The notes: generated by a model not told the origin, from the letters alone. Counted from the first letter of the stretch, positions 1,167 to 63,100 are shown. The stretch: 64,000 bases of DNA from Protoeuglena noctilucae (GCA_958009085.1 OY253686.1:620001-684000); one strand, 5' to 3'. A program made the numbers and translations.

Positions 1167-4100
1167 TCAGGCAGACGCTAAGCTAGCTCCCCGCGACGCT
1201 CCCGCCGGCGCTCCATCCCTCCCGCGCCTTGCTCGCCCCGCGCTCGCCGCCGCGTCCTGCAGCCTCGCCACCGTCGCTGCGTCGAGCTTGCTCTCGCGCA
1301 AAACAAGGTCCAGGGGCACAGGACGGGCCCTGCAGGAGAGAGAACAGTTTAAGAAGACTTGGCGAAGAAAGGCAGGAGCGCGTCCGCATTCTGCCGCGCG
1401 CCCGGGCGAGGGCATCACGAGCGTCGCCATGCAGCTCGCACCGGAGGGCCGCCTCGAGGAATCGGGCGCCGTCCGCGCCGAAGGTATTGCCGGAGATGTC
1501 GAGGCGAGCGAGCCCCGCGTTGTCGCGCACCGCCTTGGCCAGCGCGGCCACGTCCCGGTCGCCCAGTTTGTTGCGCGCCAGTGACAGCGAACGCAGCGCC
1601 CGGTCCTCCGCCAGCGACGGCAGCAGCGCGGTTAGGCCCTCCGAGCGCAGCCGGCACCTGTCCAGCACCAGTTCCCGCAAGCACCCGCCCCCCAGCGCCT
1701 TGGCCAGCGCCCGCGCCCCATCCGCGCCCAAGTGATTGCGGCTCAGGTCCAACACCGCCAGCCGCGGGGGCGCAGACGCTGCGGGGGCACTCTCCGCCCC
1801 AGATCGCGTCGCCGATCCCGCTCCCTTGCCCCCCAGCGACCCCTCTCCCACGCCTGACCCTGCCCTGACCGCCCCCGCCCCGCCCTCGCCTGCCTCCCCT
1901 TCCGCCGGCACCAGGAGGGGCCACAGGGCCCGCACGCCCTCCCCCGCGATGTTGTAGTGGTCGGCGAGGTCCAGGGAGGTCAGCCGCGGCATCCACTTGG
2001 CAGCCAGGGCCGCCACCGCAGCCGTCCCGGGGTTGCCCAGGGCGTTCCCCGCCAGAAACAGCGCCGAGGGGCTCAGGCGCGGCTCAGTCGCCGCCGCGAG
2101 GGCCTTGGACAAGTCTTTGACCCCGTCGATGGAGACGGCATTGCTAGCGAGGGACAGCGACTCCACGGCAGAGCACAACACTAAAGCTGGTGCGATGCCG
2201 GCCACCCCCACGTCGCCCAGCCCGCACGAGGCGATCGTGACTTGGGCCAGGGTGCTCTTGGAATCGCGCAGGAGGGAGGCCAGCTCACTGCAGGTGAGGC
2301 AGGGGCGGAGGTGCTGCCCGTGCTGTGGGTGGTGCATGGCATGCATGTGAATATCAGCACATGTCCAAAAGCACGCTTGCAATTGAACGTAACACATAAT
2401 TCTGAGCAAGAAAACCCCGCCACTCCATCCCTCGCCTGATCGTGCTCCCGTGCGTTCCCAGCAGCACCCCCCGCACCGTCAGCGCCCGCGCACGTGCCGC
2501 GTAGCCGCTCTTGCGCAGCGCAGCGATCACAGCAGTCGCTCCCAGCGGCCCACAGTCGAGTCCGTCCAGCTTTACTTCGTCAAACGCGTCCGGCATCGTC
2601 CCACGCATGTCGTTCATCTGATGAAGCCCCGCATGCGCACCAGCCCCAGCCCCAGCCCCGCCCATTGCCGTGCCACCGATAGGGGCCTCCCCCGCAGCCA
2701 CGCCGCCCCCAGCGAGCCGCGCCACTGCCTCCCGCACACTCCCCGGCGGCGGCAGGGCAGCCACCGGCATCGTCGGCCCCACCGTGACCCCACTGCCCTG
2801 ACCCCGTTTGCCATCTGCACCAAGCTTGTCGGATACTCCGGGCTTGGCCTCTCGTGACCCATCCAGCAGGATCTTTGCCAGCACGAAGGCCCCTGGAGTC
2901 CCCACCGCACCAGACAGCACCATCGCCCACGCCCTGCCGCCCACAACCCCATCGCCCGCCCGGGCCTGGACGATCGGCAACCCCACATTGTCCGCACCGT
3001 CACCATCGCCACCCGCGGGCAGGCGCACGGCCGGCAGGGCGACGCGGCCGTCCACCCCGCGCACCAGCTCCACTCCGTTAAACCACCCGACATGAGGATT
3101 GTCGCACGCGGCGCATGCGAGGTCCCACCACACAGACGCCGAGGCGGTGGCGGAGGCGGACGCAGTCCCGGATGCCGCAGCCGCGTCTCGCTTGGCCCTG
3201 TCGCTCTCCTCGAGCATCCTGTCGATGTCCTGGTGCAGTGCCTGGGCCACTTCGTCACCGCCGCCCCTCGCGGCCTTCGCACGCCCCGACCGGCTCCGCT
3301 CCACCTCTACCCTGGCGTCGCCACGCGTGGCAGGGCCAGCCTCGATGCGAGACTCGCAATTGGGGAAGAGAGGGACGCCCTCCCCGGCTGCACACGCGAT
3401 CGACTCTGCCAGTGCATGGTCGATGTCGATAGTGATACGCGACAGGCGGCAACCGGGCCAGGTGAGTGCCCGGCAGAGCAGCACTAGATCAGGGGCCGAG
3501 AGGGCAGGTCCCCGGAGGGAGAGGGTCGCGAGGCGGCCCGCGCAGATGTGCCGGAGGGGTGTGCGTGCTTGGAAGCCGAAGTCCGACAGGCGGTGGTCTG
3601 GGGAGGCGCAGGCGTGGATGGCACAGTCGGACACTGCATGAGCACACCTGGGGGTAGAGGACGGGGGTAGATAGGGTCAGTGATGTGTATTCGTGACAAG
3701 CCAGTACGTATTGGTGAAATTAGGCATATGATGGCTGTTTCCGTATGATTTGGATTTCAGTACTCGCCTCATGGGCGCCCCGGCAATGGTCATGGACTCG
3801 ACGGCGACGTTGCCAGCGATGACGTCGCACAGGGCCTGCGTCAGGCCGGGGATGCCCTGGGCGGCGGGCGTGAGTTTCAGCCGTAGGTCGGTCGGGGCAC
3901 TCGATAGGTGGCAAAGGTCCATGGATGCCACCTCGGCAGGGACGCGGCGGGCGTCGTCACCCTCGCCGACTGAGAGAGGGAGGCGGAGTTGGTGCTTATC
4001 AGTGGGCCAGTCAGTGAGGGCAGGCGGGTGAATGTCAGTGGTGGTGGCGTTGACGCGGATCGGAGTGGAGAGCGCAGAGCGTGGCTCGCAGGGCATTGCA

Positions 4101-7100: not shown

Positions 7101-9109
7101 CTCGCATGCGGCCAGCAGCGCCGCACGCAAGGAAGCCACAGCCAAGGCATCCACAGCCAGGCCCTTGGCATCCGCTCCAGTCTTAGGCGTGACCTCCGCC
7201 CCCCTGGCCCTCTCTGCACCCTTGTTACTGCTGCCTTGCTCTCCCTCAGCTGCCCCTCCAACCTCTCCCCACGCTCTCCGCGCTCCCCCAGGCACTCCCT
7301 GACCGTCCCCAGCATCCCTGCCCTGCCGCTGCGTCACAGTAGCCCCACCCTCCCCACCGCCGGCACCGTCCGTCCCCGCCCTCTGCCCCCCACGGACGCC
7401 GATGTTGGCCTTGGACCCCGTCACCCCTTCGAATCCCCGCAGCACCGTGTTCTCCCGCGACGTCGCCAGCGGCAGGTCACGCCCCGCCAGAATCGCCGCC
7501 TCCGCCTGTGCCAGAATCACCGCAGCTGCCGCGAGCGCGGCCTCGCTCGCACCCCAGTCGCCCACCCCGGCCTGTCCCATGGACTTCCGCGGGTCTAGCC
7601 CCAGGAACTCCAACGGCCGCGCCTTCACGTGGAAAGCCGCCAGCCTCGTCTCCTCCGCAGCAACCCCACCCACCCCGACCAGACGGGGCGACGTGGCGGC
7701 AACAGCCGGGCCTGGCCCAGACGCCCCATCCAGCTCCCCACTCTCGCCGTGCCTGTCCTCATGTTTGCCCGCAGCCCCGCTGTTCCCTTCTCGCGCAGAC
7801 GACCCACGCACCCCTGCACCCGCCGACGCCCCATCCGCTGCAAGACCCCTCCAAGCACCGGTGTGTGTTTCTGGCACATGCTGTGCCTGTGCAACATCCC
7901 CCGCCTGCTTGGGTAGCGGATTGGACGTCGCAGTGGGATTTGAAACAACACCCGGTGCTGGTGCGGGTGGCTGCGTGGGGGGCGGGCCCCGGCCAGTGCC
8001 TGCACAGGGCAAAGACAAGAGTGTCAGAGGGTCAGCAGTGAAGGCCAGCTGATAAAACTGAATGGAGCCGAGGTTAACGATACACACACCACTCGCCTGT
8101 GACGGGGGCGATGGGTCCTGTGGGGCCAGGGATCGGCACGTTGCGAGACTTGCGCACCACTGACCCCGACGGCCCCACCCCCGCGGTCCCCTCGACGCCC
8201 GCGTCATCTCTCGGCCCTTCCGACGCTTGCGAGGGTTCTGCCCCTGGCCCCGTTGGCGCCCTGCCCGCCCCTGGAAGCGCATTCTCCTTGCCCCCAAACA
8301 CGCTCACGGCGCCCGTCACTCTGGGCTTGGGCATCGTCGCCATCAGCACACCTGCGCGCAAATGTGGGAGACGGCCGGGGATGGGGAAGCGCGAGCTGTG
8401 CGTGGATAAGCCAGTTGGCACGAGGCACGGACACCAACATCGCATACAGCCTGCTCCGTGCACCCCACCTGAGTTGAGGCTGGCGCTGGCACGTGCCTCG
8501 GGGCCCCCTACGCTCGTCACGCCGTCAAACATGTCCGCCGATCGCTGCACTCCGCTTGGTCCCGCCTTGGGCGCGGCTGGCGGTGCACGGGGGCTACCCG
8601 GGGGCGTGATGGCGCTGCGGGTGGGGTGGGGCCAAAGGGCTACGACGTTTACAGAGTATGCCAATCCACTGCATCGGTTCTAAGTCACGATTGGCAGTCG
8701 GCTCTCACCTCGCCGGGAGGTCCTCGTACTCGGGATGAAGAAAGCGAGTGCTGCTTCGAGCTGAGGACGCTCCCTCCGATGGCTCGGGTGCCAGATCCGC
8801 AGGTCCGGGGGTCGTTCCGGGACCTTCGTGCGGAAAGGAGGAACGGCATGGGTTTTTCCACACGCGGGGAAATCGGAATCCCTCGGCAAAATGCGAATTG
8901 CATGTTGTCATCTGAACGGACGGGCGCGAGAATCCTGAGGCCGACGCTGGCCGAGGAGACTCACGTGGTAACGTCTTAAGCCACGAATTGATGTGGCGCA
9001 GGTGTCCGGCCCCTCGGCCGGCCTGCGGCGGGCCAGGGGGGCCCAGCTGCGCCACCGCCCCGCGCGCGGGCAGCATGTGGCCGCGCTTCTTCCCCGGCTG
9101 CGCCGACAT
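1167..9109 (-). CDS. Large multi-exon protein: disordered N-terminus, long Ala/Glu/Arg coiled coil, C-terminal RNI-like leucine-rich repeats (could be two genes)
   Basis: Exon ~1442-2289 has clear LRRs (LSLASNAVSIDG, LFLAGNALGNPG, LDLSRNHLGADG, LVLDRCRLRSEG, LSLARNKLGDRD, LDISGNTFGADG). The last exon reads ARPVPLDLVLRESKL..* to 1167. Exons at ~5200-7150 are coiled-coil-like. Several junctions were checked for phase; the start and some internal exons are uncertain. Confidence 0.55.
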
Positions 9110-11206: not shown

Positions 11207-13904
11207 TCAGAAAGCGAGCACCGCCGCGTTGCGCTCCACGGCCGCCCTCGTCTTATCCTTGAGGGCACCCCGCGAAGACTCGAGGGACCCCTCCAGGAAG
11301 GTGCGACTGCAGGCAGAGTAGCAGTGGCAGTGATAGCCGGGTATATTGTCGCCCCGGCTAAGCGTCATATCCTGGTCGGTCATTCAGTCCAGTTATTCCA
11401 TGGTGGCTCACCGGAACGTCTCCACCGCGCCCTTCATCGACGTGTGCTCCCACCCCGGCTCCGCCACCCCGCTGGCGCGCGCCTGGTCCAGCTCCTGCAC
11501 CAGCTGCCACACCGTCGGCACTGCGAGGAGACGAGCGACGCATGGGTGCCATGATGAGTTTGATGAAAGCCCCCCCGAGGTTCTCACAGTGCCCTAAGCA
11601 GGGTGCTCCATCACCTGCTTCGGGGGTGAAGTCCAGAGCGGTGGCCGGGTCGATCGGCACGCATATCTTGCCCGTCTTGGGGTGCACGCTGCGAGAGACA
11701 GGGACGCGGGGTGATCAACACGGCCCACGTGCGATGGATCGTGCCAGTCCATCGACCGATGCGCTGGGTAAGTCAAAAGGGAGCAGTCAAGGTACGAGTG
11801 TCGAGTGCTGCCGTGGGGCTCACCAGAAGGGCGCCTTGAGAAGGTGGTTCATCTTGCGGGACACTTCGATGTCGAGCCGGGGATAGGTGTAGGCCAGCAC
11901 GATGGTTCTAGAGAGAGGGGAAGGTGGCGGAACATTACAAGCATGAGCAACCCGTGTTAGGCGAAAGTGCTGCTGGGATGGTGCATGTGACTGGCAGCGG
12001 CAGGCAAGTTAACGTGCTCACTTCAGGGACCGCTCGAGCTCGTCCGCCTGTATCCTCGCCCCCTTGGCGTTCTTCATCCCCCGCAGCCGCCTAGCCTCCT
12101 TCGCCACCTCCACCTTCAGCTCCGCCCACCGCGCCACCGACACACTCTCGGACGCCTCTGCGGCCACGAGCAAGCGTGCGACGACTGAATACATCAAGAA
12201 CACCGGCATTGCGACCACCCGGGTCGTCTAACCCGTTCGCTGCCTCGCTCTGCCCCTCCCACTTCCTTGGCCCCAAGCACCGCCGACTGTACCACTGACC
12301 CCGCTCCTACTCGCCTTCCTCGTCTTCCATCTCGGAGCCCCGAGAGTCGCTGGGAGACTCGGAAACGTTCCCCGAGCTCCACTGGCTCAGCAGACGCGCC
12401 TGCAGCTCTTCGCTGGGCACGTACCTGCAACCACGTCGGCCAGTCGGGGGAGTCAGACGCAACGCGCTTCCTACCCCATGCTCTGTACGTCGCCAGCCAG
12501 GCCCGCCCCCCCCGCACACCACCCCTCGCCTCAACAGGTCGCGCGTCGCGCCCTCCCGCTCCAGCAGCCGCTGCTTGGGGAGGTACCGGGATTCGAACTC
12601 GGCCTCGAGCACCCGCAGCGACTCGGCCACGCTGGGGTGCGGGTGCTGCCCCAGGTCCACTTTGGCGAGCCCCTTGTCGTGGCCCCGGAACACCTCGAGG
12701 TACGCCGCCACGGCCGCGCGGGCGTCGTCGGCCATGGCGCGCGCGGCCGGGTCGCAGACCCAGCAGTGCACCCCGCGGCGCCCCGAGAAGACCCACAGGA
12801 TGTGGCGGAACCCGAAGTCGTGGCGGAGGACGCGGTCGATGACGACGAGGGCCATCGTGAGCAGCGGCCAGCACCTGGGAGTGGCGGCGGAGACGTGTGT
12901 GAGCGACCCGTGGCGACTAGAAGGAGCGGCCAGGGGCTTAGCGATGGGTGGGGTCGTGCGGCTTGCGACCGTCGCGTCCTCAAAGGGCCAGCATGGGTGC
13001 GTCGGACGCTGCCAGCGTGGTCAGGAGCTCTGCTTGTCATGCAAGCGCCGATCCTTTTCACCTGTGGCAGAGGGAGGAGCCCTTGCAGCACACCCGCACG
13101 TCATCGTAGCCGTCCATGTCAATGTCGAAGACGAGCTCTCGCTCCACGGGGACGAACCCGCCCCCCGACTGGTAGGCTTGGCGCTTGGAGGGGTCGACGT
13201 TGTAGACGGGACCGATGTCGATTTTCGCAGGGCACCTGCGACGGTGATGGGGAGCATTAAGCGGGCTCGCCAGGGCCTTCGCTGCGACCTTCGGGGCGGT
13301 TCGCTGTGCAGACATCTCCACCTCCACAGCCAGTTCCACATGTCATCGCCCGCGCGCATCCGCCGCGCCGCGCGGGGCGTGCCACTGCACAGCATGCGCA
13401 GCATGGCTGGGTCGTGTTCTCACTTCTTGACGAGCTCCGCACGCAGTTGCTCGGCGTCCTTGACGGACTGGTACCGGACAAAGATGTCCCCGTCGAGCGT
13501 GAAGCAAAAGTCGCGGCGTTGAAGGAAGGAGGCGTCCGCTTGCGGGTGCGGGCCGTTGTTTCCGTACGCGAGCCACTGCAAATAAATACGCGCGCGAGAG
13601 CGCTGAGAGGGACGCAGAGATGATTATGCATTCAAGAAAGCACCGAATGGTCGTGACCTCGCCTGGATCATGTCGTCGTAGGGGAAAAGGCGTCGGTAGT
13701 ACATCGGCATCAGGTCCTGCACGCGTCCGGAGTGAGATGGGGCCGCGACAGTCCCTGCAATTGGAAGGAACAAGGACGCGTATGGCATCCCCACACGGCC
13801 GGACGGAGGCGGGCGCGAGGAGAGGGCAGGGCGCGGCACACACCCGGCCCGGGGGATGCGCCCTCCGGCTCTGTCCTAGGCTTCTTCGGGGTCGGCTCGT
13901 CCAT
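11207..13904 (-). CDS. PRI1: DNA primase small (catalytic) subunit, multi-exon
   Basis: Motifs YYRRLFPY, RRDFCFTLDGDIFVRYQS, KIDIGPVY, ERELVFDIDMDGYDDVR, WVFSGRRGVHCWVCD, YTYPRLDIEVSRKMNHLLKAPF and HPKTGKICVPID. At least three introns have GC donors (13662, 12529, 12314). Confidence 0.95.
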
Positions 13905-18337: not shown

Positions 18338-21300
18338 TCATTTGAGGAAGATAGGGCGCACGTCCGACTCGGCGAACGGCGTGTTGCACGACGGGCACTT
18401 GCGGGAACGGCTCTTGATGTTCTTGTCGATGCATTTTTTGCAGAAGACGTGCATGCACTTCGTGATGACGCGGTCCTTCTGGTTGTTGCGGCACAGCCCA
18501 CAGAAGATCATGTTGCGCGTCACGCGCTGCTCCTCCTCCATCCGCTCCAAGGCCTGCAGAGCCATCAAACGGTGCAGGTGCGATGGAAGACCGCCAAGCC
18601 AGCAGACACTCGGCCCAAACCGCCCGTGACCTGACAGTAATTCGTCCATGCTTCTCGCCTGCAGGTCCCGCGACCCCAACAGCCCCTGCAGCCGCATGAC
18701 CTTCTGCAGCGCGAGCTTCATCTCGGAGACAGCCCGCTCTTTCTCTGCCTTTGCCTTCTCCGCCTCCTCCACCGCAGCCTCGACCTCCCTCTTCATCGCC
18801 GCGACCGTCTCGCGCAGGACCGACGCCTCGCCCTCCACCCTGGCGGAAGCGACAGGGGGGTGACGAGAATCACCTCGGTGCACCACACAGGCGGGGAATC
18901 AAGACAGGGTCGGGTTGCAAGGGATACTTAACAAACGCCAAGTGCGGAAACCGTTGCACACACCGGGTGCCATCCCCTCTGTTGCGTCAAACATCACCCC
19001 ACCACTCGCGCTCACCTCGCCCGCTCCGCGTCGTTCGCCACCTGGCCCCGCAGCCCCTCCCTCAGGCCCCGCAGGTCGGCCCCCAGCGCCTCCAGCGCCG
19101 CCCACACCTCCGCCACGTACTTGTCCGCCTCGGCCAGCAGACGGGCCTGGCGGTCCGACTGCGCAGACAGCGGCGATGGCAACAAGATTGCCATCAGGGA
19201 CATGAAGCGACAGAAAGCAGGGCACACAAACTACAGAACCTCGACGGCAACACCGTGCTTTCATCACAACGCGTCACCGACCCTGGTAGCCAACCCTGGT
19301 AGGGCGTACAGGGTGTCCCACCGCCCCCATAGCACCCCCGCCCCCTCACCTCCTCCCTCGCCCTCGTCACGTCCCCAGCCGCCGCCGCCAGCTCCTCCCC
19401 CAGACGGGCCTTGTCCTTCTCCAGCCCCGCGACGTTCTCGTCCAATGCGGCCACGCTCGCCAGCAGGTCCCTCGCCTGCCCCTGCACCCGCTCGTACTCG
19501 GACCCCACCGCCTCCACCTCCTTCAGATACGTGGCCGACTCCTCCTGGGCCGCCAGCAGCGCGGAGGCGGCCTGCGGGGGCGAGAAGCGCGGGGGTGACG
19601 AGCTGTTGGCACGGTGTCGGTCACCTCTCATGGGCGGCAGCGGCATCCAGCGTCCCCGCCGCTCTTCCAAACCCTCACCTCCTCCCTCGCCGCCTCCAGT
19701 TGCTCGTTCACCGCCTCCAGCTTGCTGCACTGCTCCCGAGCAGCCGTCAGCTCCGCCTCCACCTCACGCACACGCCCCTCCAGGCGCGTCACTGCATTGG
19801 AAGAAATTCAGCCAGGGTCTTTGACATCATAGTTAGTGTAAACCGGAGAAATAGCCACCCGAGACACCTCTTCCAATCAAAACCCCACAGCGAGCCCCCT
19901 CTGCCACCCTGCTCACCCTCGGCCCCACCCCTCAGCCCCGCCACCTCCTCCCTCAGCCTCTCCACCTCCTTGCGCAGCTCTGCCGCCTCCGCGTGCCCCT
20001 TCGCCGTGTCCAGGTCGTCCCCGCACGTGGCCGTGAGGACGTCCAGGAAGGCCCGGTGGCGGCGCTCGGCACTCCGCGCCTCCTCGGCGTCTTTTTCCAG
20101 AGCCGCCACGCGTGCCTGCAGTGCAGTTGAAATGTGTGTGACGCCTACGGCTTTGCTTAATTGTTGCCTATGGAATGGTAGCTACTGCTTGTCGCTCAGC
20201 TCCCCTGAGCCACGCCACGCGCGTGCCCCATCAATCACGTGGCTCTGTCCCATCTCTGCCAAGACCACTCGCCTGGGCTTCCTTGAGCTGCGCGCGTGCC
20301 ACGAACAGCGGCCCCTGCTCCGCCCCCAGCTCCCGCCGGGCCGCCGCCACCTCCCCCGCCGCCGCGTGCAGGTCCGCCCCCTGACGCAGGCGCTGCTTGG
20401 CCGCGGACAGGTGCCGCCGCAGGGACGCGTTTTCCCCGCTCAGCCGGCCCACCTCGGCGCGGAGGGCGTCCCGCGTCTGCCGGGGGGGGGCAGAAAAGGC
20501 GTAGTGAGCGACCAGACATACTGGCATACTGGGGCACATCGTTTCGGTAGTGCAGAACAGGGAGAAGTGATATGCAAACGAGACAAACACATGGACGTTC
20601 GTTAACGATAAGAGCTTCTCTTGTTCCTGTCCCGTAACAAAAGGCCAGCTGCACCCCACCACCCCTCGCCTGGCTGGACGGGATCTGCGCCTTGAGCTCC
20701 TCCAGCTGCCCTGAGAGCCGCGCCCGCTCCGTCCGCATCCGCGCCACCTCCCCCTGCGCCGCGTCCAGCTCCGACTTGAGCCTGTCCCTCTCCAGGTCAA
20801 ACACCGACACACGGATCCGAAGCGTGTTGGACACATCATCCAGCTTGCCCAGCAGGCGCTTGGTCCACGCCGCCTCCAGCGTCCGCAGCTCATCGGTGAA
20901 CTGCAAAAGAACGTCGGTACGTGGTCATCAATTGAGGGGCCAGGGCATTGAGAGTCGTGCCACAGCTTTCTCATGATGAAAGGACGACCGGCGTGCGACC
21001 ACTGTCCCACTCCCGCATGTTGGGGGTTCCCCAGCCTACGCCCGGCCCTCACCTGCCCCAGTGCCGCATCCCTCCGCTGCCCCTCCGCGCGCCGCTCCGC
21101 CTCTCGCCGCTCCTTCTCGAGCCGCGCCACCTGCTCCTCCAGCCGTGAGACCACCTCGTCTCGTGCCGCACGCAAGTCCCGCATCTCCGCCTCCAGCTCC
21201 TCCTGTACCTTCCGCTGCGGCAAGTGATTTAAAACAAAAGCATGTGAGCGTGTCAAGGGGCCCATCGCGGCGCAGGGAGCCTCCCCATGTGCAGTGGTGC

Positions 21301-44250: not shown

Positions 44251-46371
44251 CTACCCCTGCCCTCGGCCCCCGCTCCCTGTCGCCGGGGCCGCCCACTCTG
44301 GCGGGGCCAGGATGCGCGCGGAGGGACTCTCCGGCGCCCCTAGCTGCCCGCACGCTGCCATCTCGTCGTCGCCCCGGCTGTCGCGCACCGTGCACACGTA
44401 CCCGTCGGCGATGAGGGCGCTGCGGAAGGACGCCACCGCGGCGGGGGTGCTGGGCGCGAATTGGGCGCCCTGGTGGGGGTTGAACACGATCAGGTTGACC
44501 TGCGGTGCAGGTAGCGAGGCAGAGTTGATACAATGACGCCCTTGTCATGCCACACTGGTGTAGAAGGCGTGGGAACCGGCCATGGCGGTGCCATTGCAGC
44601 GTTCCGATGGCCTCACCTTGCACTTGATCCCCCGCAGCAGGGCTCCGAGCCTCTGGGCGTCTTCGGCCGTGTCATTCACGCCCTTCAGCATGACATACTC
44701 GATGAGCACGAAGCCCTTGCCCTCTCTCGGAAACAGCTCCTCCAAGCAGCCGAGCAGCTGTGCCAAGGGGTACCTGAGAGGCATGGCAAGAGAGGCATGA
44801 CAAGCAGGCGTCCAACGCATGCTCACAGAGGAACCGTTCCCTTTGCAAGCGACAGCACAAACTGGCCAAAGCACGTTAGCAATCGATCCCGGCCCCTCGC
44901 CTGCGGTTGACGGGCACGATCCAGTCCCGCACGGCGTCGGTGGTGGCGTGCAGGGACACCGCGAGCTGTCCCCCCACGGGGCTGCTGGCAAAGGCGCGGA
45001 TGCCGGGGACCAGCCCGACGGTGGACACGGTGACCTTCTCGCGGGACATGTGCAGTCCCTGGGGATCGCAAACAATGGCCAGGGCGCGCTCGACGGCCGG
45101 CCAGTTGTCCAGGGGCTCGCCCATGCCCATGAACACCAGGTTGGTCACTGTCGATGGCAGGCCGCCTGGGGGTGCGGGTGCGGGTGGGCGCGGTGTCAAG
45201 CGGGTGCCACTGGCCCTCAGCATCACGAGCCGTTTTCATCAGCCCCAGTCATCCAGCTTGCCTCGTTCCGCCACGTGCCGCTTTGCCTGCACCACTTGCT
45301 CGACCACCTGCGCCGCGCTCAGGTTGCCCCGCAGACCCATCCTGCCCGTGTAGCAGAACTGGCAGTTCATCGCGCACCCCACTTGCGTCGACACGCACAC
45401 GGTCACCCGCCGGCGCCGGCCCTCTGACCTGCAAACAGCGAAAGCCAGGCTCTCAAGCAAGATCGGCCCGCTGACGTTCACTCCCACACAGCCGATGGGC
45501 ATTGGACAAGCGATCTGCCCGCCCTGTGCCTCACCGCACGACGGGGATGAGGACCGTCTCCACTCTGCCCCCCGCAGCCTCCCCTGCAGTGACGCGAAAC
45601 ACCAGCTTGGTGGTGCCGTCCGAGGCGTCGTGGGCCTCCAGGAGCTCCAGGCCACCGTCTGGAGTCCCGCGACCCCGCACAGCTTCCCGGAACCGCGCTG
45701 AGAAGCCGTTCTGCAGGCCCTCCGTCTCGTCAAACGTGCTCATGTACAGGGAGCCGCCGTACGAGGGGGAGTCCGAGTACATCCAGCGCCAGACCTGGCG
45801 CGCTCGGCGCTGCGGGTAGCAAAAGATGGGGCTTTCAGCACGCATCGTCGCGTGCAATGCGGCCTGCTCCTTCGCGAGCTGAAGCACCTCCGGTTCGGCG
45901 TCTCCCACGCTCGCGCACCATTCCACGAGCTCTGGAAACAGCATGTCTTTCAGCAAGAACTCATCGCCGGCGCAAGTGCCGGGCTGCGGGGAAGGGGGAC
46001 AGGATTAAGTGCGTGGAGGTGCGTGGGCCGTTGAAAGACAATGGTGGAGCTCAACGAGCACCTTTGTACTGCATTATCATCGCACCAGCCACTCGCATGC
46101 ATGCAGACCGGGAGATAGAAGTGCTGTCACGCATTATCACCCTTTTCTTCGCTGCGTGCTCCCCGCCCAGGGGCCCCGGAGCCGGTGCGTGCGCCACGGC
46201 GCGCAAAACAAGGCCTTTGTCACGCCCCCCGACCGTGCGTCGCTCAGCCAGCTCTGCACGCTGACGCAAAGCGCTGCCCCATGCTAGCGAGCAGCTCAGG
46301 GGCAGCGAACGGACATGGCGGCAGTGGTGGCCGGTCCAGCAAGCCGAGGGAGCTCTGAACGCGACACTCAT
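44251..46371 (-). CDS. rlmN: RlmN-like radical SAM RNA methyltransferase, probably organelle-targeted
   Basis: [18 protein letters not shown] (CxxxCxxC), [31 protein letters not shown] and AACGQL. The N-terminal exon [11 protein letters not shown].. looks like a transit peptide. Confidence 0.92.
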
Positions 46372-46735: not shown

Positions 46736-49700
46736 ATGGCATCGCAAGGGCCGGGCGGGGCCATCCACGCCGTCCCGAAGGACTCTGTACACAAGATATG
46801 CAGCGGCCAGGTCATCCTCGACCTCGCCACCGCGGTGAAGGCGAGCGCGCGGGCCACGCGCGAACGAGCGCGTTCGTGGATTCGTCGCGCGCCGCACACA
46901 TCGCTGACGTAAAGCCAGGGGGACAATCGAGCCGACGGTGTTGCTCCGCTGCTGCTGCCGCTGTCGTGTGCCTCGCTCTTGTGGCTTGAGGCCCCGCCCA
47001 TCCCGCTGCTCTGTTTCGAACAGCCCGCCGCCGACGCGAGGCTCTCAGCTGCTGGCGGTCTCGCTCGCGAACCGCAGGAACTCGTGGAAAACGCCTTGGA
47101 CGCGGGGGCGACCAGCGTGGAGGTCCGCCTGAAGGAGTACGGCGTGGACCTGGTCAGTGTGCCGCACTGCAGCTGCCCCACTGCGTGTGCCCTTTGCCCA
47201 CCCTGTCCCGGCACGGCAGCGGTCGATTTCGCTCATCCTCGCGCCTCTCCACGCCCCTCCCGTGCCTGTCTTGCATCAGAGACCTCCTGCACCCACGCCC
47301 TCGCCCGCCGTACCCCCCTGCCCAGATCGAGGTGGCGGACAACGGGACGGGCGTGGACCGGGGGAGCTTCGCCAGCCTGGCCGCCAAGCACCACACGAGC
47401 AAGATTCGCGACTTCGCCGACCTGGAGGCTCTGTCGACGTTTGGGTTCCGTGGGGAGGCGCTGTCGTCCCTGTGTGCCGTGGCAGCCGTGTCTGTGGTGA
47501 CGCGGACGGCGAGTGACGCCACGGGCACGCGGGTGGTGTACGACCGGGCGGGGGGGGTCGCGTCGACGGAGCCGGCGGCGAGGGCGGTCGGGACGACGGG
47601 TGAGGGCTCGCCAGGGCGGCATGCGCTGGCGGACACAGGGGCGTGCAGGGTGTGAGAACCGAGTGTAACGATGTTCTAATCATCGACTGCATCCCTGCAG
47701 TGGCTGTCGAGTCTCTGTTCGCGCCCCTGCCCGTCCGCCGCCAGGAGCTGGTGCGCAATGCCAAGCGCGAGTACACCCGGCTGCTGCAGGTGCTGCAGAG
47801 CTACGCCCTCGTGTGCGAGGTGAGTAACTCTGTTACAACTGCGTCGCTGTCACAAATGCGCGTCTCTATCCATGGGTGTTCGAATCTCAGGTCCCCGTCG
47901 CTGTCTTGTCAGGGCGTCCGCCTGCTCTGCACCAACCAGACAGGGACAGGCCCGCGGCAAACGGTCGTCAGCACTCTCAAGAGGCAGGGGCAGCGCCAGG
48001 CCATCGCGGCGGTGTTTGGGGCCAAGGCCGTGGCGGGGCTCATGCAGGCGAGGGGAGGGAGCATGTAGTGACATATGCAGCAGGTCTAGACTGGCAAGCA
48101 CCGGACATCTCATTAGTCTCACCAGGCTGATGTCCACCGAGCTTCTTCTACTGCCCATGTTCTCAGGTCGAGAAAGCAGTGGCTCTCGTTTCCGAAGACC
48201 CAGCGCCCGGCAAGAATCGCCCCGACCGCGCGACACCCGCGGCGGCGACGGAGGGCGCGGCCGAGGGGGCACCACAGACGCAAACGCACTCTCAGCCGCA
48301 ATCGCTGTCGCTGCCGTCCGCGGACGCTGCGGGGAGGCTGTCCCTGGGGTCGTTTGCTCTCTCTGCGGGGCAGACACAGGCAGCGGGGCCGGGGGCAGGG
48401 GAGGGGACGGCGCGGGGCGAAGGGGCGGGGCCGGGGGATGGGAGCGGCGCGGTTGCAAGCATCGCGCTTAGTCCCGCGCAAAGCGGATTGCCGCCTGCCC
48501 CGCTGAGCCTGGGCGCGGACCCTACCCGTGCCGTGATCCGCGGATGGGTGTCGCGTCCCGAGGCGGGATGTGGGCGCGCATCGGGGGACAGGCGAGGCTG
48601 CCAGTGCACTGCGCGGCGCTGTGCTGGTATAATATGATTACAACCCCACATGCAGACACTCGCTGCCCTAGCCACGTGCTAGCCATGTGCTCATGCGGCC
48701 ACCCAGCCACCCCTGTCGTGGCCCCCAGGCAGTTCTTCTACCTCAACGGCCGCCCCATCGACTTCCCCCGCGCGGCCAAGGTCGTCAACGAGGCCTTCCG
48801 CGCCCAGACGTCCCCCCTCGGCTCCACCGCTGCCCACAAACCCGCCGCCATCCTCGACATCGTGGTGGGGAGGGGCGCGGTAGACGTCAACGTCACACCG
48901 GACAAGCGGAAGGCGAGGGAATGCTATTAGAAGAGGAGATTATGGCAATGATGTATGCCCATTGTTCGCCTTTACTGCAACAGGCTACTGGTCCGGTTCC
49001 CTGTGTTGTGCTTCTCATGTTGGCGTGCTTGGAGTCACTGTCACGATGATTAAGGTTCGAGTCTCCCCAGGTTCTTCTCCACCACGAGGGCGCGATTCTA
49101 ACAGCCATGCGGGAGATGCTCGAGGAGGCGTGGGCGCCCCACCACAGCACGTACCGGGTGTCGGACGTGCTGTGCCCGTTGCAGGGGGGGCGGGGGAGGC
49201 GCAGCCGGGGGAGCATGGGAGGGGTGGAGAGCGAGGGGGTGGGGGATGAGGGGGAGGGTGGGGCTGGGGTTGGGGCGGAGCTGGGGGGAGGTGGGGTGGA
49301 TGTGAGTGAGAGAGGACAGGACTTGCCGGCAGACGTGGAAAGGAGGGAGGGTGAGGCGGCCAGGGGAGAAAATGGGACTCAAAGTGAGGGAGGCGACGAT
49401 GTTATGTCAGATCGCAACGACGAGGGGCTGCAGAGGACGGCACATGGAATCAGGGCTGAGGTTCGGGGCTGTGATGGGGGGGGAGATGAAGTAGGGCTAA
49501 GCGGGGCTGGGCGAGGCAAGCGACGAGCGGAGGGGGTGGCAGCGGCGGTGGCAGGGACGTCATCGGGGGGGGATGTAATGGGGTCCGGTCACTTGGCGTG
49601 GACGGGCAGGGGAGGGGGCGCAAGGGCTGCCAAGCGCGCAAGGGGGGGTGAGGGCGGGGGAGGGCGTGAGAGGGCGTTTATGCGGGCGTTTTTGGGTGGC

Positions 49701-52114
49701 AAGGGTGGGGAGCCAGCGCCAGCGACGAGAGAGGATGAGGGGGAGGTGGGAGATGACGATGGGGGTGGTGCGGTAGGGGAGAGGGTAGACGATGGAGGGG
49801 GCAACGAGGCTGGCGACGGGGAAGAGAATGGGGGAGGCAGTGAGGCTGGCGTAGGGACGGAGAGGGTGGTGTTGGCGACGCCGGAGGAGGCGACGGGGGA
49901 CGTTGACATCAGTGAGGTGCCGGTGGGTGGTGACGAGGGCGAGGGTGGGGGCGAGGATGGGGCGGGGGTGGTAGAGGAGATGCTGGGGGAGGGCAAGGGG
50001 GTCGAGGAAGCGCTGGCGATGGGCGTGGAGGTGATTGGCAGGTGGCAGGTGGCAGGCGGCAGGCGGCAGGTGGCAGGGCACGAGCGTGCGTGTGTTTGAA
50101 TCGCACCCCATCTGTGTTGCTTGGAGTCAAAAGCATCGACGTGACGCACCGCAACGCTGCTCTTCTTGTCGCAGTTGCCGCCCCCTTTTGAGGAAGGGCC
50201 TTTGGGAATTGGCGCAGGGGAGGGCGAGGATGCTGACATGCCAGTGGCAGCATGGGACCAGCCGCGTGTGCTGCCCTCTGGGGATGTGGAGGCGGCATTC
50301 GACGCAGAGAAGCTACGACAGCTCTACCAGCGGCTGGCGGAGGGGGCTGCGGCGCGGAGGGCGGCGGGGGAGGCAAGGCCGGTGGGTAGGGCTCGCGATG
50401 AGGACAGGGGCGGGGAAATGGAGCTGGGGGCGTTTGCGATGGGGCAAGGGGGTGCTGGGGCCGCGGGGGTGTCCCAGGCAAGGCCGGGTGAGGGGCGGGC
50501 GCGGCGGAGGGCGTTTGTGGCGGCGACGCTGGCGCTGGGCGGGGGTACGGGGGGGCCGAGCCAGGGCGGTGGCAGGGAGGGGGCGGAGAGGGCGAGGGAG
50601 GGGGATGCACCGCTGCGGGAGGGCCTGGACGAGGCTGGGCGGGAGCTGGACCGCGTGTTTGACAAGCGCGACTTCAGGTGAGTGCGTAGGTTGCGACACC
50701 GTTGCACAGCCGGTCTGTGTCTGTGGGTGCTGGGTAAGCTGACCTACTGCTTGGTAACCTGGATGCGTCGCATGTCATTCTCTTCCCTGACTATGAACCA
50801 TCCCGTCCTCTGCCCCTCCTCAGCCGCATGGACATCATCGGGCAGTTCAACCTGGGCTTCATCCTCTGCCGCCTGGGCCGCGACGTCTTCATCGTGGACC
50901 AGCACGCCAGCGACGAGAAGAGCACCTTCGAGCGACTGTGCGCCACCACCGCCATGACCAGGCGAGGGGGGGAGGCGGAGATGGTGGGAGATGGACATCT
51001 GTGTGTGCTCGCCTGTTGCAATGTCGGGCCATTGTTGTACTGTTCGATTGCACCGGCATGCAAGTAGCCAAGGGATGCATCATGCGCTCACCCCCGCCCA
51101 TCGTGTCTGCGCAGGCAAGCCCTCCTCCGTCCCCTGCCTCTGCCCCTTTCCCCCGCGGAGGAGGCCGTGGTGCGAGACGCCGCCCCCGTCTTTGAGGCCA
51201 ATGGCTTCGCCTTTTCAGACGACCCCGACACCGGGCGACTGATGCTGAGCGCCGTGCCAGTCAGCAAGGTGCGGAGAGGAGACGCGCCGCTGCCGGCGAC
51301 ACGAGGCGCTCACTGCTTTGCCTTTGCGATTGTTTGGCCTCTTGACTGGGACAGCGTGGGCGAGTCAGTGCCGCCTCCACTGCCATACTCGCGTCTACGG
51401 CCGGCACACCGGCGTCGGACTCCCCGCGAAGTACGAGTTTAACCGGCCGCTGTTCGCCGCCATCGCCCGCAATCGATCATTCCCATCGATCCAGCCATGT
51501 TCACCTCTGCAGGGGGTACAGCTGGGCCCGGAGGACGTGGTGGAGCTGGCGGCATTGGTGCGGGGGGGCGAGGGGGCAGCGCAGGGGTGGCGGTGGGGGG
51601 AGGGCACTGGGGGGAGGGGCCGTGTGCTGCGCCCCAGCCGCGTCCGGGCCATGCTGGCGTCGCGGGCGTGCAGGCGAGCTGGCTGCGTCACTTGCCCTGT
51701 GCCCTGCGCTGCACTGGGAGCCGTCACAGTGCACCCTGGCTGGCCCCTCTCATGCCGTCTGCTGTGTCCCGGACTGCGATGCGCATGACAAGCAGCCGTG
51801 TTTTTTCCCTTTCCTCCAGGTCCTCGGTGATGATCGGGAAGGCCCTTGACCGCCGTGCCATGCGACGCATCGTGGACCGATTGTCGGAGGTGAGGGGGTG
51901 GATGTGCAGAGACACACGCCGCGTCGACTGAGTAAACATACATGACTTTGTCTCAATCGTGCCGCCACGCACTCTTCGCTGGGCCACGCCGCGACCATGG
52001 ACACCCCACCTGCCCGCACTGCAGCTCGACAGTCCTTGGAACTGTCCCCACGGGCGGCCCACCATGCGGCACCTCTTCGCCTTGGCAGACGGGCGAGACG
52101 CAGATAACGAATAA
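46736..52114 (+). CDS. PMS1: MutL-alpha endonuclease subunit PMS1 (human PMS2 type), 14 exons
   Basis: [95 protein letters not shown] and [13 protein letters not shown]. Confidence 0.96.
50037..50078 (+). repeat. Six tandem copies of the 7-mer GGCAGG(T/C/G) at the start of a PMS1 intron
   Basis: ggcaggt ggcaggt ggcaggc ggcaggc ggcaggt ggcaggg, read directly from the sequence. Confidence 0.9.
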
Positions 52115-52321
52115 ATCGACCACTGAGGGTTCACGAGGACGGGGCTTTCATAGCTGCAACTGTGCAACTGTGTCGACTGCCGCGCTTGAACCGTTTCGCT
52201 TGGCAGTGCACAACCATGTCTCCTCACACACACAATGGCGCGGCCAGGCATTCGCCGGCCCCCGTAACAAAGCACGCAAGCGGGATCCGAGCGGGGTTGG
52301 CGAGGGCCGCATAGCAGGCAA

Positions 52322-55485
<3,164 letters not shown>

Positions 55486-56254: not shown

Positions 56255-58453
56255 ATGGCTCAACAGCCAGCCGGACTTTCTCGTCGACCGGGCCCCGGCA
56301 TGTTCTTAAAGTGCCGCCTGCACATTGCTGTCCGCCTCCCGCGACCGCAGGTGTCCCGCGTAGAGCGCGAGGTGGTCGACTTGCTGCGCAGCATGAACTC
56401 GGGCGAGGCACTCCCCCTCGCCCAGCCGGCCCCGACGCGCTTTTCGACCCAGCGCAAGAGCTCCTCCGGGCATTCACGTAGGGAAGCTCTCAGCGGCGAG
56501 GCACCCCCGGGGGACGAGGCGGGGGCCGCGCACGTCGGTGAGCCACCGTCTCTCGGCAGCGTCTCTCGACCGGCATGCCGGACGCTGACGCTGCTTCGCC
56601 TGTGGACCCCCGTACCGCCCGTTGCTGCTGCTCATGCAGGGTCTTCCGCAGAAGACCTGGACTCTTCGAAGGAGAACCTTGTTTGCTCGGAGGAGCTTTC
56701 TCCCTCGGACCAGATGCCCAGCAGACTGCCGACCCAGCACTCCATGCCCTTCACGGTGCTGCGGCAGCGCCAGCCCCGCCGTCACGCGTTGAGCGATGTC
56801 ACGAACGCGGAGGCACCCTCGTCGCCCTTCGGACAGCGCGGCGCGGGCGTGCTGCTGGAGATGGCCCGGGGGAGGGGGGCCGCGCAGGCTACGGAGGCTG
56901 GGAGGGGAGTCGGGAACGCTGCCGGCCCGAGGCCGATGGAGCGGTGGGGTGCTAAGCGCCCGCGGAGCACGGACACGGTGCTTTCAGAGGAGGACGACAC
57001 CGCCCCGAGTCCGCACGACACGGCCGCCAGGGTGGCAGCCACGACGGGTCCCCCCAGCGTGGCGCCTCCCGCCTCGCTGCGGGACACGGCTGCAAGCCCC
57101 ATGCGCCCGCGGGTGGCGGGGCCCTCAGGAGGGGGGAGCAAGATGACCCCGAAGACGCAGTGGAGGCGAGGGTGCAACGAGCGAGCCGCACGCTTCGGCT
57201 GACTGCAACTGCTTCTCAACCACCGTTGGCGTCCCACGCTGTATGCAGGGCGGAGTTGGCTGGGAGCCTGGAGTCAACGCTGCGGTTGCTGGAAGAGAGG
57301 GTGCCGACTCCCCAGCTGGACCAGATGGGGGACTTGCCGCTGGTGCGGTGGGTCCGTCTGGTCGGGGCGAACGCTTTGGCACGGGCAGCGGCCATGCAAG
57401 TGACGTTGAGGGGCATCGAGGAGGAAGAGCTCGCCCTCAGCAAGGCGGAGGCCGACATCGAGCCCGAGCTGTTGCCACTCTTAGCGGAGGCGTACCGTGA
57501 CACGCGGGAGGTGAGCGTGTGGCACCGCCTGTTTCCCGAGTCACACTCTCGTCGCGTTGATCATCGCCGCAACTCCTTTGTCGCCATCGTCCCCGCAGGT
57601 GCTGTCCCGGGAGCACACCCTCCTGCAGAGCACTCTGCGGGTGTTAGACTTTGTGGCGCCGCTCGCGAGGGACAGTGTGCCTCCAGAGGTGCGCGCGGCA
57701 CTCCTGCTTGGCGGCGGCAGGGTACCCGAGACCCTTGGGCCGAACGTGGGTGCGGAGGTCGTCAGGGCCGGGGCGCTGGCGAGGAATGTGATGGACGGGT
57801 TTGCCAGGCGTGCGCGCGACATTCGCGAGCAGTCGGGGGCCGGCGTTTCACGGTCGTCGCCTGGCACGGCCGAGGACCCTCCCAGGCGCCCGGAGGGCGG
57901 TGTGAGCCTGAGGACGACGGTGGAGGCTGCGGGGACCACGACGCCGGTCTTGGCTCCGGCTGAGCGCGCCCGGACGTGCGTTCGCGTGCGGGAGGCTACG
58001 GAGACGCCAGTGGCGGGCCAGGCGCACGTGCCGGCTGCCCTGGGTGGCGCGGCGGGGAACCTGACCATCGCGCGGCCTGTGGCACCGGTGCTATTCCCTG
58101 CCGTGGACCTGGCGTCGCTGATGCCCAAGCTGTACCCGGCGACGGGGCCAGGCACGGTCCAGGCGACGCCCGCCGCGCTGGCGGGGAACCTGAGGACTGT
58201 GCAGGGGGGAGCGGCGAGCGCGGCGTTGGACCCAGAGTCCGTCGCGGGCAAGCGACTCTCGTTCGGGTCGCCCTCGGGTCTGACACCGCTGGCGACGGGC
58301 CAGGCCGGGCAGGCGGTGACCGTGAAGGCAACGCCAGGGGCGGCCATCGGGCATGGGGCCAAAAGGCAGGCGCTGGCCACGCCGCCCACGGATCCTGTGG
58401 GGAGAGTGGGCCGTGCCCCCGCGGCCGATGGCAGCCAGGGCGGGGGGCGCTAA
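56255..58453 (+). CDS. Uncharacterised protein with KEN-box and D-box motifs, a central helical domain and disordered ends; start uncertain
   Basis: Splice-compatible exons 56351-57165, 57249-57510 and 57599-58453. Contains KEN and RHALSDVTN, plus several S/T-P sites. Confidence 0.55.
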
Positions 58454-60172: not shown

Positions 60173-63100
60173 ATGGACGTCATCGTCGAGTCTTTGGTCC
60201 GGAGGCGGTGGCCCGGCGTGGAGGACCTGGAGCTCGTCTTGGCAGGTGCGCGTTGCGTCCATGCCCGGCAGATTGGCGCTCCGCAGATTGGCAGCGGCCA
60301 GGAGGCGCGGGGGCGTAACTGGGCCCGGGATCGCACGAAACGTTTTTTAGCATTATCTGCGAGCGCTTGGCGCGTCGCTGGCCGTCGGGGCCACGCGCCG
60401 TGCGTGCCTCCTCTTGCTTTCCAAACGGCCGCCCGTCCACCCGTCCCTCGCGCGCCACACTCTCCCGCAGGTCAACTCGACATCGCCACGGACTTCATCT
60501 ACCTGGAGAACATCCGGGGGGACGTGCGCGTGCCGCGCATGCTCGTCACGGCCGTGCAGTGCCTCGCCATATGGGGCTGCCTGATTGAGGTGGTCCGCAT
60601 GGCGTGGCGGCACCTGGTGGTCAACAGCAAGGCCGTGAATCGCAACTACGGCGGCAACAACGTGCGGGTCGGGAAGCCGAGTCCGCGACTGCTCTTCGCG
60701 TGGTGGGCGGCGCTCCTCCACTCCGCGCCCCAGGTCGCCCTCCTCGCCTACGTGGAGAACAGCCGCAACACGTTCGGCTCCGGCGGGTCCTTCACCATCG
60801 CGGCCTTCCTCAGCCTCGCCATCGCCTGCATCAACCTCTTCCTCGCCCAGTGGTACATGCTCAAGGCCCTCGGTTACCCGTGCCTCCCCACCTGCTGCGT
60901 GGTCCTCGCCAACTACACGGTCGATGACAGCGCGGGGCAAACGCTTCTCCACGACGCCGCGGGGTCCGGGGACCTGCCCCTGGTGAAGCACCTGCTGTAC
61001 CGGTGCAAGGCGCGCATTGACGCCAGGAATCTGCGGGGGCAGACGCCTTTGCACATCGCCGCGGGGTGAGGGAGCGGGGGTCGTGGGCGTGCGACCGTGC
61101 GGTGCCTGTCATGACCCGACGTTCCCGACGCGCCTTGCACCTGCCCCGTCCGCGCAGGGCTCCCGAGGATGTCAAAGGCGCTCTGGCGTGCGTGTCCTTC
61201 CTCATGTCGGCTGGGGCAGACGTGGGGGCGATGGACATGGAGGGCCGCACCCCCCTGGCCGTGGCCGCCGCGTGAGTGGCGCAGGGGGGGCACGCGGGGG
61301 CTCGCCGCGCATGCGAACTGGTGACCACCGTGACACCCTTCCCCTCCACGCCTGCGCAGCCTGGGGACGGAGGCGACGATCAAGTGCCTGGTGACGGATG
61401 GCAAGGCGGAGATCCACACGACGGACAACGCGGGCATGACTCCGCTGCACCTGGCGGTCTGGTGAGCCGCGCGCCCAGCAACGCTCGTCTGACATCAGCG
61501 GAGAGCGCTAGAGCATTGACGAGCTCCCCACCCCTTCGGTTGCAGGCACGGCCACGCGGCCAACACGCGCGTCCTGATCGGCTTCGGCGGCGCGAACGTC
61601 AACGCCGTCGACTACCTGGGGCGCACGGCTCTCCACTGGTGCTTGTGGTGAGCCCAAGCGTAGCGTCGCTGTGAGAGAGTGTCTGTATGGTGCTGCGTCT
61701 CTGCAGCCACCTCTCATCTCTGTCATGTGGTTCTTCAGGACGGACCGGGAGGACCTGGCCAAGACCCTCGTGGGAGCCGGAGCGGACGTCAACTGCGCCG
61801 ACAGCCAGGGCAAGACGCTGCTCCACATCGCGGCCGAGAGGCGAGTGGGGCAGCAGAGGGCGCTTTGCCGCATTCACGGAGCGTATTACGGCCGCAAGCG
61901 CACCCTCTCCCATGGCGATTCGCCCGCGCCCTCGTCCCCGCAGTTCCAGCCCCGCCCTGTCCCACGTCGCGCTGGCCACGGTCCTGGTGGACTCGCTGGG
62001 GGCCGACCCCAACAAGCGGGACCGCCACCGCCGCACCCCGCTGATGCTGGCCATGGGCGCCAAGGCCCGCGACGAGGCGCTCGTGGCGTTTTTGGCGGAC
62101 CGGACGGCGCCGGGCGGGGACGCCAACTCGCGGGCGGGTGCCTTGAGCGCGGCGCCGTCGGCCCCAGGCACCCAGGCGCCGTCCCGGGTGCCGTCCCGGG
62201 CACCGTCGCGCGCGGGGTCGCGGGCGGGGGATGCCGATGGGAAGGCGCCCGCGAAGACGGCGCCGACGGTCGACGCGGGGTCGTCGCGGCGTGTGGCGCC
62301 GGCGGGGTGGCCCTCGCATGCGGCAAGCGAGGACGCGGGTGGGGACTCGGACGGCGGCAGTAGCCGTCACGCGGCGCCCAAGAGCTGCTACAGCTCGCAG
62401 GACCTGAGGGGGAGCCGGGGGGAGGAGGAATCCCCCCCTCGTCCCCCGCGGCCCCGGGCGGCGTCGTCCCTGCGCACGCACCTCCTGCAGGCGCAGATCC
62501 GGGCGTCGGGGCTCGCGGGCGCGGCCGCTCCCGACGGCTCCGAGGCGGCGTCCGTGTCCCGCATCGCCGTGGCGCCCGCGGTGGTGCCCCGCGAGAGCTC
62601 GGCCGCCTCGGTGGCGCAGACGTTTGCGTCGTCGTCGTCGCGGCGGCCGTCGCTGGTCAGCTGCGATGGTGACAGCGGCAGGGGGCTAGGGGCGGACGTC
62701 GCGAGCGGGAGCGGGGCCGAGGGGTCCCCCGGGTCGCGGCCGGGCTCTAGACGTGGGTCGCAGGCCAGCGGGTGGCTGTCGCGCATGCTGAGCCAGCGCC
62801 GCGTGGCGGACGAGGGCATGGCGCTGTCGGAGGCGGAGGGGTCGCCGAGGCCGGGGGGCCTGGCCCTCGCCATGACGAGCTGGGAGTTCAAGGGCGGGCT
62901 GGGCGGTCCAGTATGCGGCGTGGGCGGCGGGAGCGCGGGGAAGGGCGGCAGCAGGAAGGGCAGCTCGGGCGTGGAGGCGGCGGCCGGCACCCGGCGCGGA
63001 GGGGAGAAGGCGGGGAGTTCCGGGCAGGCGACGGACAGGAGCGACGGCGACGGCAGTGGGGAAGTGGATGGGGCCGCGCGTGGCTTGACGGTGCGGAACG

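Follow-up and report, generated by a model that had tools for sequence, protein, structure and literature searches.

How can roughly a quarter of the introns in a stretch of nuclear DNA begin with GC, where GT is the rule, and what would let the spliceosome accept them? The question is raised by a 64-kb window of the Protoeuglena noctilucae assembly (GCA_958009085.1, OY253686.1:620001-684000; hereafter the window), for which an earlier note had listed 26 introns with a GC donor and an AG acceptor. Using a transcript-derived protein, protein homologs and a solved protein chain, we found that introns in this window are removed exactly at GC...AG, and that GC donors occur only in an otherwise fully matching AG|GCGAG context, whereas GT donors tolerate weaker ones. 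These are very probably ordinary introns of the major spliceosome (U2-type) with C in place of T at intron position +2, which make up roughly a quarter of the introns and would be recognised by a standard U1, as we infer from their context. The window has a G+C content of 67.1%, each 4-kb bin lying between 64 and 72%; this and the counts below refer to the window.

The donor motif at the listed sites

GCGAG formed the first five intron bases at 26/26 listed coordinates on the implied strand and was preceded by AG at 25/26, in line with the claim that nearly all of these donors follow an exonic AG; at 27831 the preceding bases were CG. The heptamer AGGCGAG was present in 45 copies on both strands, against 17.8 ± 4.4 expected, and 0 of 100 dinucleotide-preserving shuffles reached 45. 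This excess of about 27 is about the number of proposed donor sites, and because about 18 copies are expected by chance, each site needs its own evidence. Independent evidence fixed 12 of the 26 listed GC-AG donors, four by identity with the transcript-derived protein P0007 and eight by alignment to homologs or to a solved chain. Another 12 had support from a gene parse, and 0/26 were refuted; among the 12 listed sites open to independent testing, none failed. The list of 26 GCGAG donors therefore stands, all carrying the motif. The statement that all GC donors read GCGAG held for the listed sites, but it would not be a strict rule if two further predicted donors that read GCAAG are real: 45261 on the minus strand and 29282 on the plus strand (intron 29282-29359). 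Among the junctions said to be forced by conserved protein motifs, AVK|ELVEN, DKRK|VLL, ACR|SSVMIG, DWTE|EEF and MIQ|WLAYG were confirmed, and GYK|VRK was supported by the parse together with an IQ profile.

Junctions fixed by a transcript-derived protein

The cathepsin L-like protease gene could be anchored to P0007, a 687-residue transcript-derived protein (sources jgi+lgn), which ten exons (55464-52325, minus strand) reproduce residue for residue. The longest contig behind P0007 measures 2676 nucleotides, shorter than the genomic span of 3143 nucleotides, and is therefore spliced. Each of the nine junctions had exactly one canonical solution.

52322..55464, minus strand: cathepsin L-like protease gene; 10 exons and 9 introns, 4 GC-AG and 5 GT-AG
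55194..55398, minus strand: GC-AG intron, gag|GCGAGT; exact match to P0007, no GT-AG solution exists
54190..54342, minus strand: GC-AG intron, aag|GCGAGG; exact match to P0007
53624..53721, minus strand: GC-AG intron, gag|GCGAGT (DWTE|EEF); exact match to P0007
53309..53404, minus strand: GC-AG intron, cag|GCGAGG; exact match to P0007
55141, 54763, 53078, 52868 and 52546, minus strand: GT-AG donors; exact match to P0007

Several introns in the window are divisible by three in length, some of them without an in-frame stop (47820-47912 on the plus strand; 53309-53404, 54190-54342 and 52995-53078 on the minus strand), so that open frames can read straight across them. The first cathepsin query was only 80% identical to its own transcript protein P0007 because its open frames ran through introns. 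The N-terminal part of the protein is unusually long (about 400 residues) with a proline-rich start, and precedes the I29 propeptide and C1 peptidase domains (53722-55464, minus strand).

Junctions fixed by homology

In the MutL/PMS-type mismatch-repair gene and the DNA primase small-subunit gene, all donor/acceptor pairs near a junction were scored, whatever their dinucleotides, by aligning the joined peptide to homologs. The PMS homologs were P0006, P0003, P0001 and P0002; the first protein search with a PMS exon gave only distant homologs of at most 50% identity, which were still usable for scoring. Primase junctions were scored against 8 homologs. At donors 46841, 48592, 48913, 50962, 51674, 13662 and 12529, GC-AG was the sole canonical pair at or near the top score.

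46736..52093, plus strand: MutL/PMS-type mismatch-repair gene (Pfam DNA_mis_repair and MutL_C); 10 homology-fixed junctions, 5 GC-AG and 5 GT-AG
46841..47077, plus strand: GC-AG intron (AVK|ELVEN); score 168, with 147 for the best GT-AG alternative, through which the conserved VK would be lost
48592..48728, plus strand: GC-AG intron, phase 2; 656 against 610 for the best GT-AG pair
48913..49070, plus strand: GC-AG intron (DKRK|VLL); 689 against 501
50962..51114, plus strand: GC-AG intron; 436, with the best GT-AG pair at 402; non-canonical pairs alone reach the maximum of 440
51674..51819, plus strand: GC-AG intron (ACR|SSVMIG); 451 against 373
47153, 47600, 47820, 51269 and 51890, plus strand: GT-AG donors of the PMS gene; same homolog scoring
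48048..48166, plus strand: candidate GC-AG intron of the PMS gene, from the gene parse; the stretch is poorly conserved and homology indecisive
11207..13713, minus strand: DNA primase small-subunit gene (Pfam DNA_primase_S); 6 homology-fixed junctions, 2 GC-AG and 4 GT-AG
13576..13662, minus strand: GC-AG intron (MIQ|WLAYG); 1444 against 888 for the best GT-AG pair
12425..12529, minus strand: GC-AG intron of the primase gene; 651 against 548
13423, 13061, 12021 and 11823, minus strand: GT-AG donors of the primase gene; homolog scoring
12158..12314, minus strand: candidate GC-AG intron in the primase linker, from the gene parse; the linker is poorly conserved and homology indecisive

An RlmN-like radical-SAM gene was compared with the solved chain 6fz6_A. 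At donor 44900 the upstream exon ends at residue 251 of the chain and the downstream exon starts at residue 253, with a split codon between them; among shifts that keep the same length, a canonical pair (GC-AG) arises only at shift 0. The exon upstream of donor 45534 gave no match to a solved chain.

44774..44900, minus strand: GC-AG intron, cag|GCGAGG; exons abut on 6fz6_A
44616, minus strand: GT-AG donor, aag|GTGAGG; exons abut at 303|304 of the solved chain
45166..45261, minus strand: candidate GC-AG intron with a GCAAGC donor, from the gene parse; exons match the chain up to residue 164 and from residue 169, continuous within about 3 residues

In total, 12 GC-AG and 15 GT-AG junctions in four genes were fixed independently of any splice-site model. 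Since the same methods returned 15 GT-AG junctions, they do not favour GC.

Donor context and intron class

The 25 verified junctions compared for context differed sharply between the two classes. AG at positions -2/-1 was found at 11/11 GC donors and at 4/14 GT donors (Fisher p=0.00055), and GAG at +3 to +5 at 11/11 and 9/14, respectively, which agrees with the earlier suggestion that GC donors compensate by a strong consensus elsewhere. The junctions verified later, cag|GCGAGG at 44900 and aag|GTGAGG at 44616, fit this pattern. The verified set is small but shows the restriction to AG|GCGAG without the circularity of a parser. In the larger set of introns from the gene parse described below, position +2 was C in 26 and T in 23 introns within the context AG|G[TC]GAG, against 2 C and 71 T in other contexts; the proportion C/(C+T) in intron interiors was 0.59. 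Such a strict context is how U2-type GC-AG introns are known to compensate: closer pairing at the other positions makes up for the C/A mismatch to U1 at +2 (PMC1557818).

Other features were shared by the two classes. Among introns that are mostly predicted, the last three bases were CAG in 28/28 GC introns and 92/94 GT introns, and the pyrimidine share upstream of the acceptor was 0.69 and 0.68. Median intron length was 147 nucleotides for GC and 135 for GT introns, and intron GC content was 0.61 for GC-AG and 0.63 for GT-AG. Nearly every GT donor read GTGAG or GTGCG (G at +3 in 90/94), and acceptors were nearly all CAG, often followed by G. This donor and acceptor pattern is a GC-shifted form of the usual GTAAG consensus.

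Frequency census and its controls

Intron frequency was estimated with a purpose-written gene parser that was self-trained on the 64 kb, used separate GT and GC donor matrices and was corrected with the verified genes. GC-AG introns accounted for 28/122 introns, or 23% (Wilson interval 16-31%), so that the earlier hand count of one intron in five or six was about right, perhaps slightly low. Even if every other site were false, the 12 verified GC-AG introns among at most about 130 introns would set a floor of about 9%; both figures lie well above 1-2% and bear out the claim that GC-AG introns far exceed the usual 1%. The parse contains 12 of the 14 listed sites that lack independent support, and adds donors at 3767, 18658 and 37839 as well as the GCAAG donors 29282 and 45261.

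Without GC donors the parse reached a summed gene score of 2995, down from 3285, a loss of 290 units. Decoys that kept the flanking matrix but read GG or GA won back just 57 and 34 units, respectively, and the parser set most of them no more than a few dozen bases from a GC donor that had been displaced. The loss of score and the placement of the decoys therefore indicate that introns are needed at those places and that GC fits them best.

The GC-AG share was uneven between genes: about 10/23 in the PMS and cathepsin genes (46700-55500), 0/5 in a calcium-dependent kinase gene (22900-25200) and 0/7 in the gene at 40354-44109 (region 40300-44200). This could reflect chance, or local recombination or expression.

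Interpretation and rival explanations

GC pressure combined with compensation is well supported as the explanation of these introns. A U1 with a standard 5' end would form base pairs at -2, -1, +1, +4 and +5 and a wobble pair at +3, leaving one C/A mismatch, at +2, that it would tolerate. Where the context is strong enough, GTGAG may then become GCGAG through GC-biased substitution or fixation, and in this permissive context T and C at +2 would settle near the intron-interior ratio. The link to GC pressure made in the earlier note fits the ratio of 26:23 in the strong context set beside 0.59 in intron interiors, and it also fits GC-AG shares of 39.6% in Aureococcus anophagefferens (69.5% GC), 22.2% in Micromonas pusilla CCMP1545 (65.9% GC) and 7.7% in Chlorella sp., which are the three most GC-rich of 61 genomes (Iwata and Gotoh, 2011; PMC3033335).

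Several points weigh against this account. The parser is known to have erred: it called a GC donor at 52093 that is false, joined 51890 to the wrong acceptor and lost the cathepsin gene through an overlap. Our own parse supplies most of the basis for both the census count and the strong-context ratio, and is used here as a census and not as proof. The GC matrix was trained on AG|GCGAG and so penalises other contexts, which makes the count of 2/73 outside the strong context partly circular. The GC share among verified junctions, 44%, is biased because genes with many claimed GC donors were picked. Independent verification does not extend to 14/26 listed sites, and the evidence at transcript level is one protein from a transcript contig. 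Strong donor contexts are also common in human DNA. Human GC donors nevertheless stand near 1% (Sheth et al., 2006; PMC1557818), and a nearly neutral +2 position would therefore need either strongly GC-biased fixation or a more tolerant spliceosome.

The last point leads to explanations that place the cause in the spliceosome. Its machinery might itself be relaxed or altered, in the U1 5' end, U6, U1C or Prp8, so that C at +2 is cheap and GC pressure alone would be insufficient. The near 1:1 ratio of C to T at +2 implies that a GC donor costs very little, and we therefore keep this as a minority reading, though an improbable one. The ratio of 26:23 looks as if +2 were hardly selected; Iwata and Gotoh call the abundance of such introns 'an enigma', suggest base modification or proteins of the U1 small nuclear ribonucleoprotein (snRNP), and report 22.2% in M. 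pusilla against 2.7% in Micromonas RCC299 despite a similar GC content (PMC3033335). Against altered machinery, GC donors strictly need AG|..GAG (11/11 verified), as an unaltered U1 would impose, and the same source gives a consensus U1 5' end for both published algae with the trait (PMC3033335). The window bears nothing on the machinery, as an Rfam scan of the 64 kb returned 0 matches and hence no U1 or U6 gene within it. A variant U1 or U6 is not required by the data or by the strict context. A related proposal, to which we give about one chance in five, is that, as long as the remainder of the site is a full match, +2 may in effect hold either pyrimidine (Y) freely, with T and C at their mutational ratio and a spliceosome that pays almost no cost for GC; this might come about through a change in U1 snRNP proteins, a small nuclear RNA modification, or Prp8/U6 proofreading.

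Three other explanations were considered still less probable. In one, the verified dozen would be real, most other listed sites would be chance copies of AGGCGAG and the true share would lie nearer 10% than 25%. It draws on the roughly 18 copies of AGGCGAG expected by chance, on at least 17 of the 45 AGGCGAG sites being donors in no model, on the 14 listed sites without independent proof, and on the partial circularity of the parse; we nevertheless regard it as quite unlikely, since there are as many proposed donors as AGGCGAG copies beyond the chance level (45 against 17.8), the parse without GC donors loses 290 units and places decoys next to the same sites, and 0/12 testable sites failed. 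Alternatively, a mobile introner carrying its own GC donor might have given rise to the GC-AG introns by copying itself. Introners were reportedly described by Huff et al. in 2016 from Micromonas pusilla and Aureococcus. It counts for this idea that these classic introner hosts are also the two algae with the highest GC-AG shares. In an all-against-all blastn comparison of the 122 introns of the window, however, one weak pair was found (31 nucleotides, 84% identity), both members being GT introns, with no match involving a GC intron; beyond the splice signals the introns have nothing in common, and an introner origin is very unlikely. Least probable of all, to the point of being negligible, is that these are U12-type introns of the minor spliceosome. 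U12-type donors read [AG]TATCC, and a few U12-type GC-AG introns are recorded for other species (PMC1557818), but those carry GCATCC at +1 to +6, whereas the donors here read GCGAG or GCAAG, that is U2-type GTGAG with T changed to C; no search for a branch-point box was made.

Further candidate introns

The remaining listed sites, and those that the parse adds to them, are given below; the likely GC donors 3767, 18658 and 37839, all predicted, were absent from the earlier list.

2288..2435, minus strand: candidate GC-AG intron in an LRR gene, from the gene parse; Pfam continuity is ambiguous because of repeats
7838..8096, minus strand: candidate GC-AG intron, from the gene parse
20116..20272, minus strand: candidate GC-AG intron in a coiled-coil gene, from the gene parse
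20477..20669, minus strand: candidate GC-AG intron in a coiled-coil gene, from the gene parse
26235..26239, plus strand: listed motif site GCGAG; motif present, no gene model covers the site
27743..27831, minus strand: intron of a fibrillin gene, either ccg|GCGAGT or a GT-AG pair 4 nucleotides further on; GC-AG 74 against 70 for the shifted GT-AG
30785..30957, plus strand: candidate GC-AG intron, from the gene parse
32382..32568, plus strand: candidate GC-AG intron, from the gene parse
34912..35029, minus strand: candidate GC-AG intron, from the gene parse
35165..35320, minus strand: candidate GC-AG intron splitting an IQ motif (GYK|VRK), from the gene parse and the Pfam IQ profile
57166..57248, plus strand: candidate GC-AG intron, from the gene parse
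61841..61943, plus strand: candidate GC-AG intron in an ankyrin gene, from the gene parse; ankyrin matches on both sides with about 5 extra residues, acceptor uncertain, repeats ambiguous
3648..3767, minus strand: predicted GC-AG intron beyond the earlier list, from the gene parse
18554..18658, minus strand: predicted GC-AG intron beyond the earlier list, from the gene parse
37624..37839, minus strand: predicted GC-AG intron in a Kelch gene, beyond the earlier list, from the gene parse; Kelch matches in both flanking exons, continuity ambiguous because of repeats

At 35320, positions 2-15 of the 21 positions of the Pfam IQ profile end at the last residue of the upstream exon, and the downstream exon is too short to match. 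The fibrillin exon downstream of the 27831 junction is likewise too short for a Pfam match. The 27831 junction was scored against a relative encoded in a metagenome contig (L001, positions L001:3001-3750; 63% identity, 50% GC), the one match returned by a metagenome scan with the fibrillin exon. This relative encodes the fibrillin stretch in one exon, so that the intron position is not common to it; GC-AG and the shifted GT-AG are therefore not separable by this comparison, which offers no orthologous donor for a comparison of GT with GC.

A 453-residue protein (P0180) was considered as support for donor 20669 and rejected. It was the only strong match of the exon upstream of this donor and is an intron-including read-through open reading frame of 20234-21592 (minus strand), 99.8% colinear with the genomic DNA, introns included. 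Its presence in a public protein collection indicates that prokaryote-style gene calls on this eukaryotic assembly are in circulation.

Gene content and source lineage

Intron-rich protein genes are densely packed on both strands across the window, with about 5-17 introns predicted per gene by the self-trained parse. Pfam searches of open frames identified plant-type TOM20, PAP/fibrillin, DNA primase small subunit, thiazole kinase, calcium-dependent kinase, Kelch, MutL/PMS mismatch-repair, cathepsin L-like protease, ankyrin and LRR proteins. Among named organisms, a primase exon was most similar to streptophytes and Mesostigma, at about 50-54% identity, and the source is therefore read as a green-lineage alga. 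A kinase exon compared with a protein atlas gave no useful taxon, and searches with the PMS, primase and cathepsin proteins returned no annotated entry from the species itself. Sampled words of 46500-56400 were present at 23-34% in four metatranscriptome runs from one study, labelled marine metagenome, and in full in four further runs labelled organism A; these shares indicate neither expression nor habitat.

Comparison with known systems

A high share of GC-AG introns in GC-rich marine algae is already known, and the present alga adds an intron-rich green-lineage case. The literature search, which did not cover subscription journals, found no report of abundant GC-AG introns in another intron-rich marine green alga, and the matching passages of a plant survey (PMC6310983) gave nothing specific to the trait. 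For annotation, a gene caller restricted to GT would disrupt about a quarter of the introns in this genome, as in our GT-only control, which rebuilt genes around the missing donors; GC donors should be enabled with an AG|GCGAG matrix. The quantitative picture, in which GC donors are confined to the full-consensus context and there roughly equal GT donors in number, is relevant to whether GC pressure alone suffices. If +2 were indeed nearly free, this alga would offer an intron-rich green-lineage model for why some GC-rich algae carry 20-40% GC-AG introns and close relatives do not.

Among U2-type GC-AG introns in general, which amount to 0.4-0.9% of introns in human, mouse, Arabidopsis, fly and worm, the 5' sites bind U1 and a better match elsewhere compensates the mismatch at +2 (Sheth et al., 2006; PMC1557818). 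The introns of the window share this compensation and have 3' splice sites like those of GT-AG introns, but they are about 25-fold or more as frequent. Their consensus is GCGAG, and not GCAAG as in GC-AG introns generally, which follows from GTGAG being the form of the GT sites here. In mammals, 298 GT to GC events were counted against 40 from GC to GT (Churbanov et al., 2008; PMC2490688). The likeness would lie in GC donors arising from GT by a single substitution and accumulating; the difference is that selection linked to alternative splicing was invoked there (PMC2490688), whereas GC-biased substitution is the simpler reading here.

The closest counterparts are the GC-rich algae. Their genomic GC content is 64-70%, against 67.1% in this window, and their GC-AG shares are one to two orders of magnitude above 1%, with the approximately 23% of the window close to M. 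pusilla; the average over 61 species was 1.3% (PMC3033335). Intron lengths do not differ between the GC-AG and GT-AG classes there or here, and the U1 5' end is of plain consensus in Aureococcus and both Micromonas (PMC3033335). In a 2024 preprint on these pelagophytes, GC-AG introns make up 14-17% in strains of Aureococcus and about 14% in Pelagomonas, which the authors ascribe to GC content (bioRxiv 10.1101/2024.10.30.620910). Aureococcus differs in having 0.4-0.9 introns per gene (10.1101/2024.10.30.620910), against the 5-17 or so predicted here. Within the available text of these papers, the strict AG|GCGAG context and the ratio of about 1:1 for C and T within it are unreported, and they set the window apart from an otherwise similar group of genomes.

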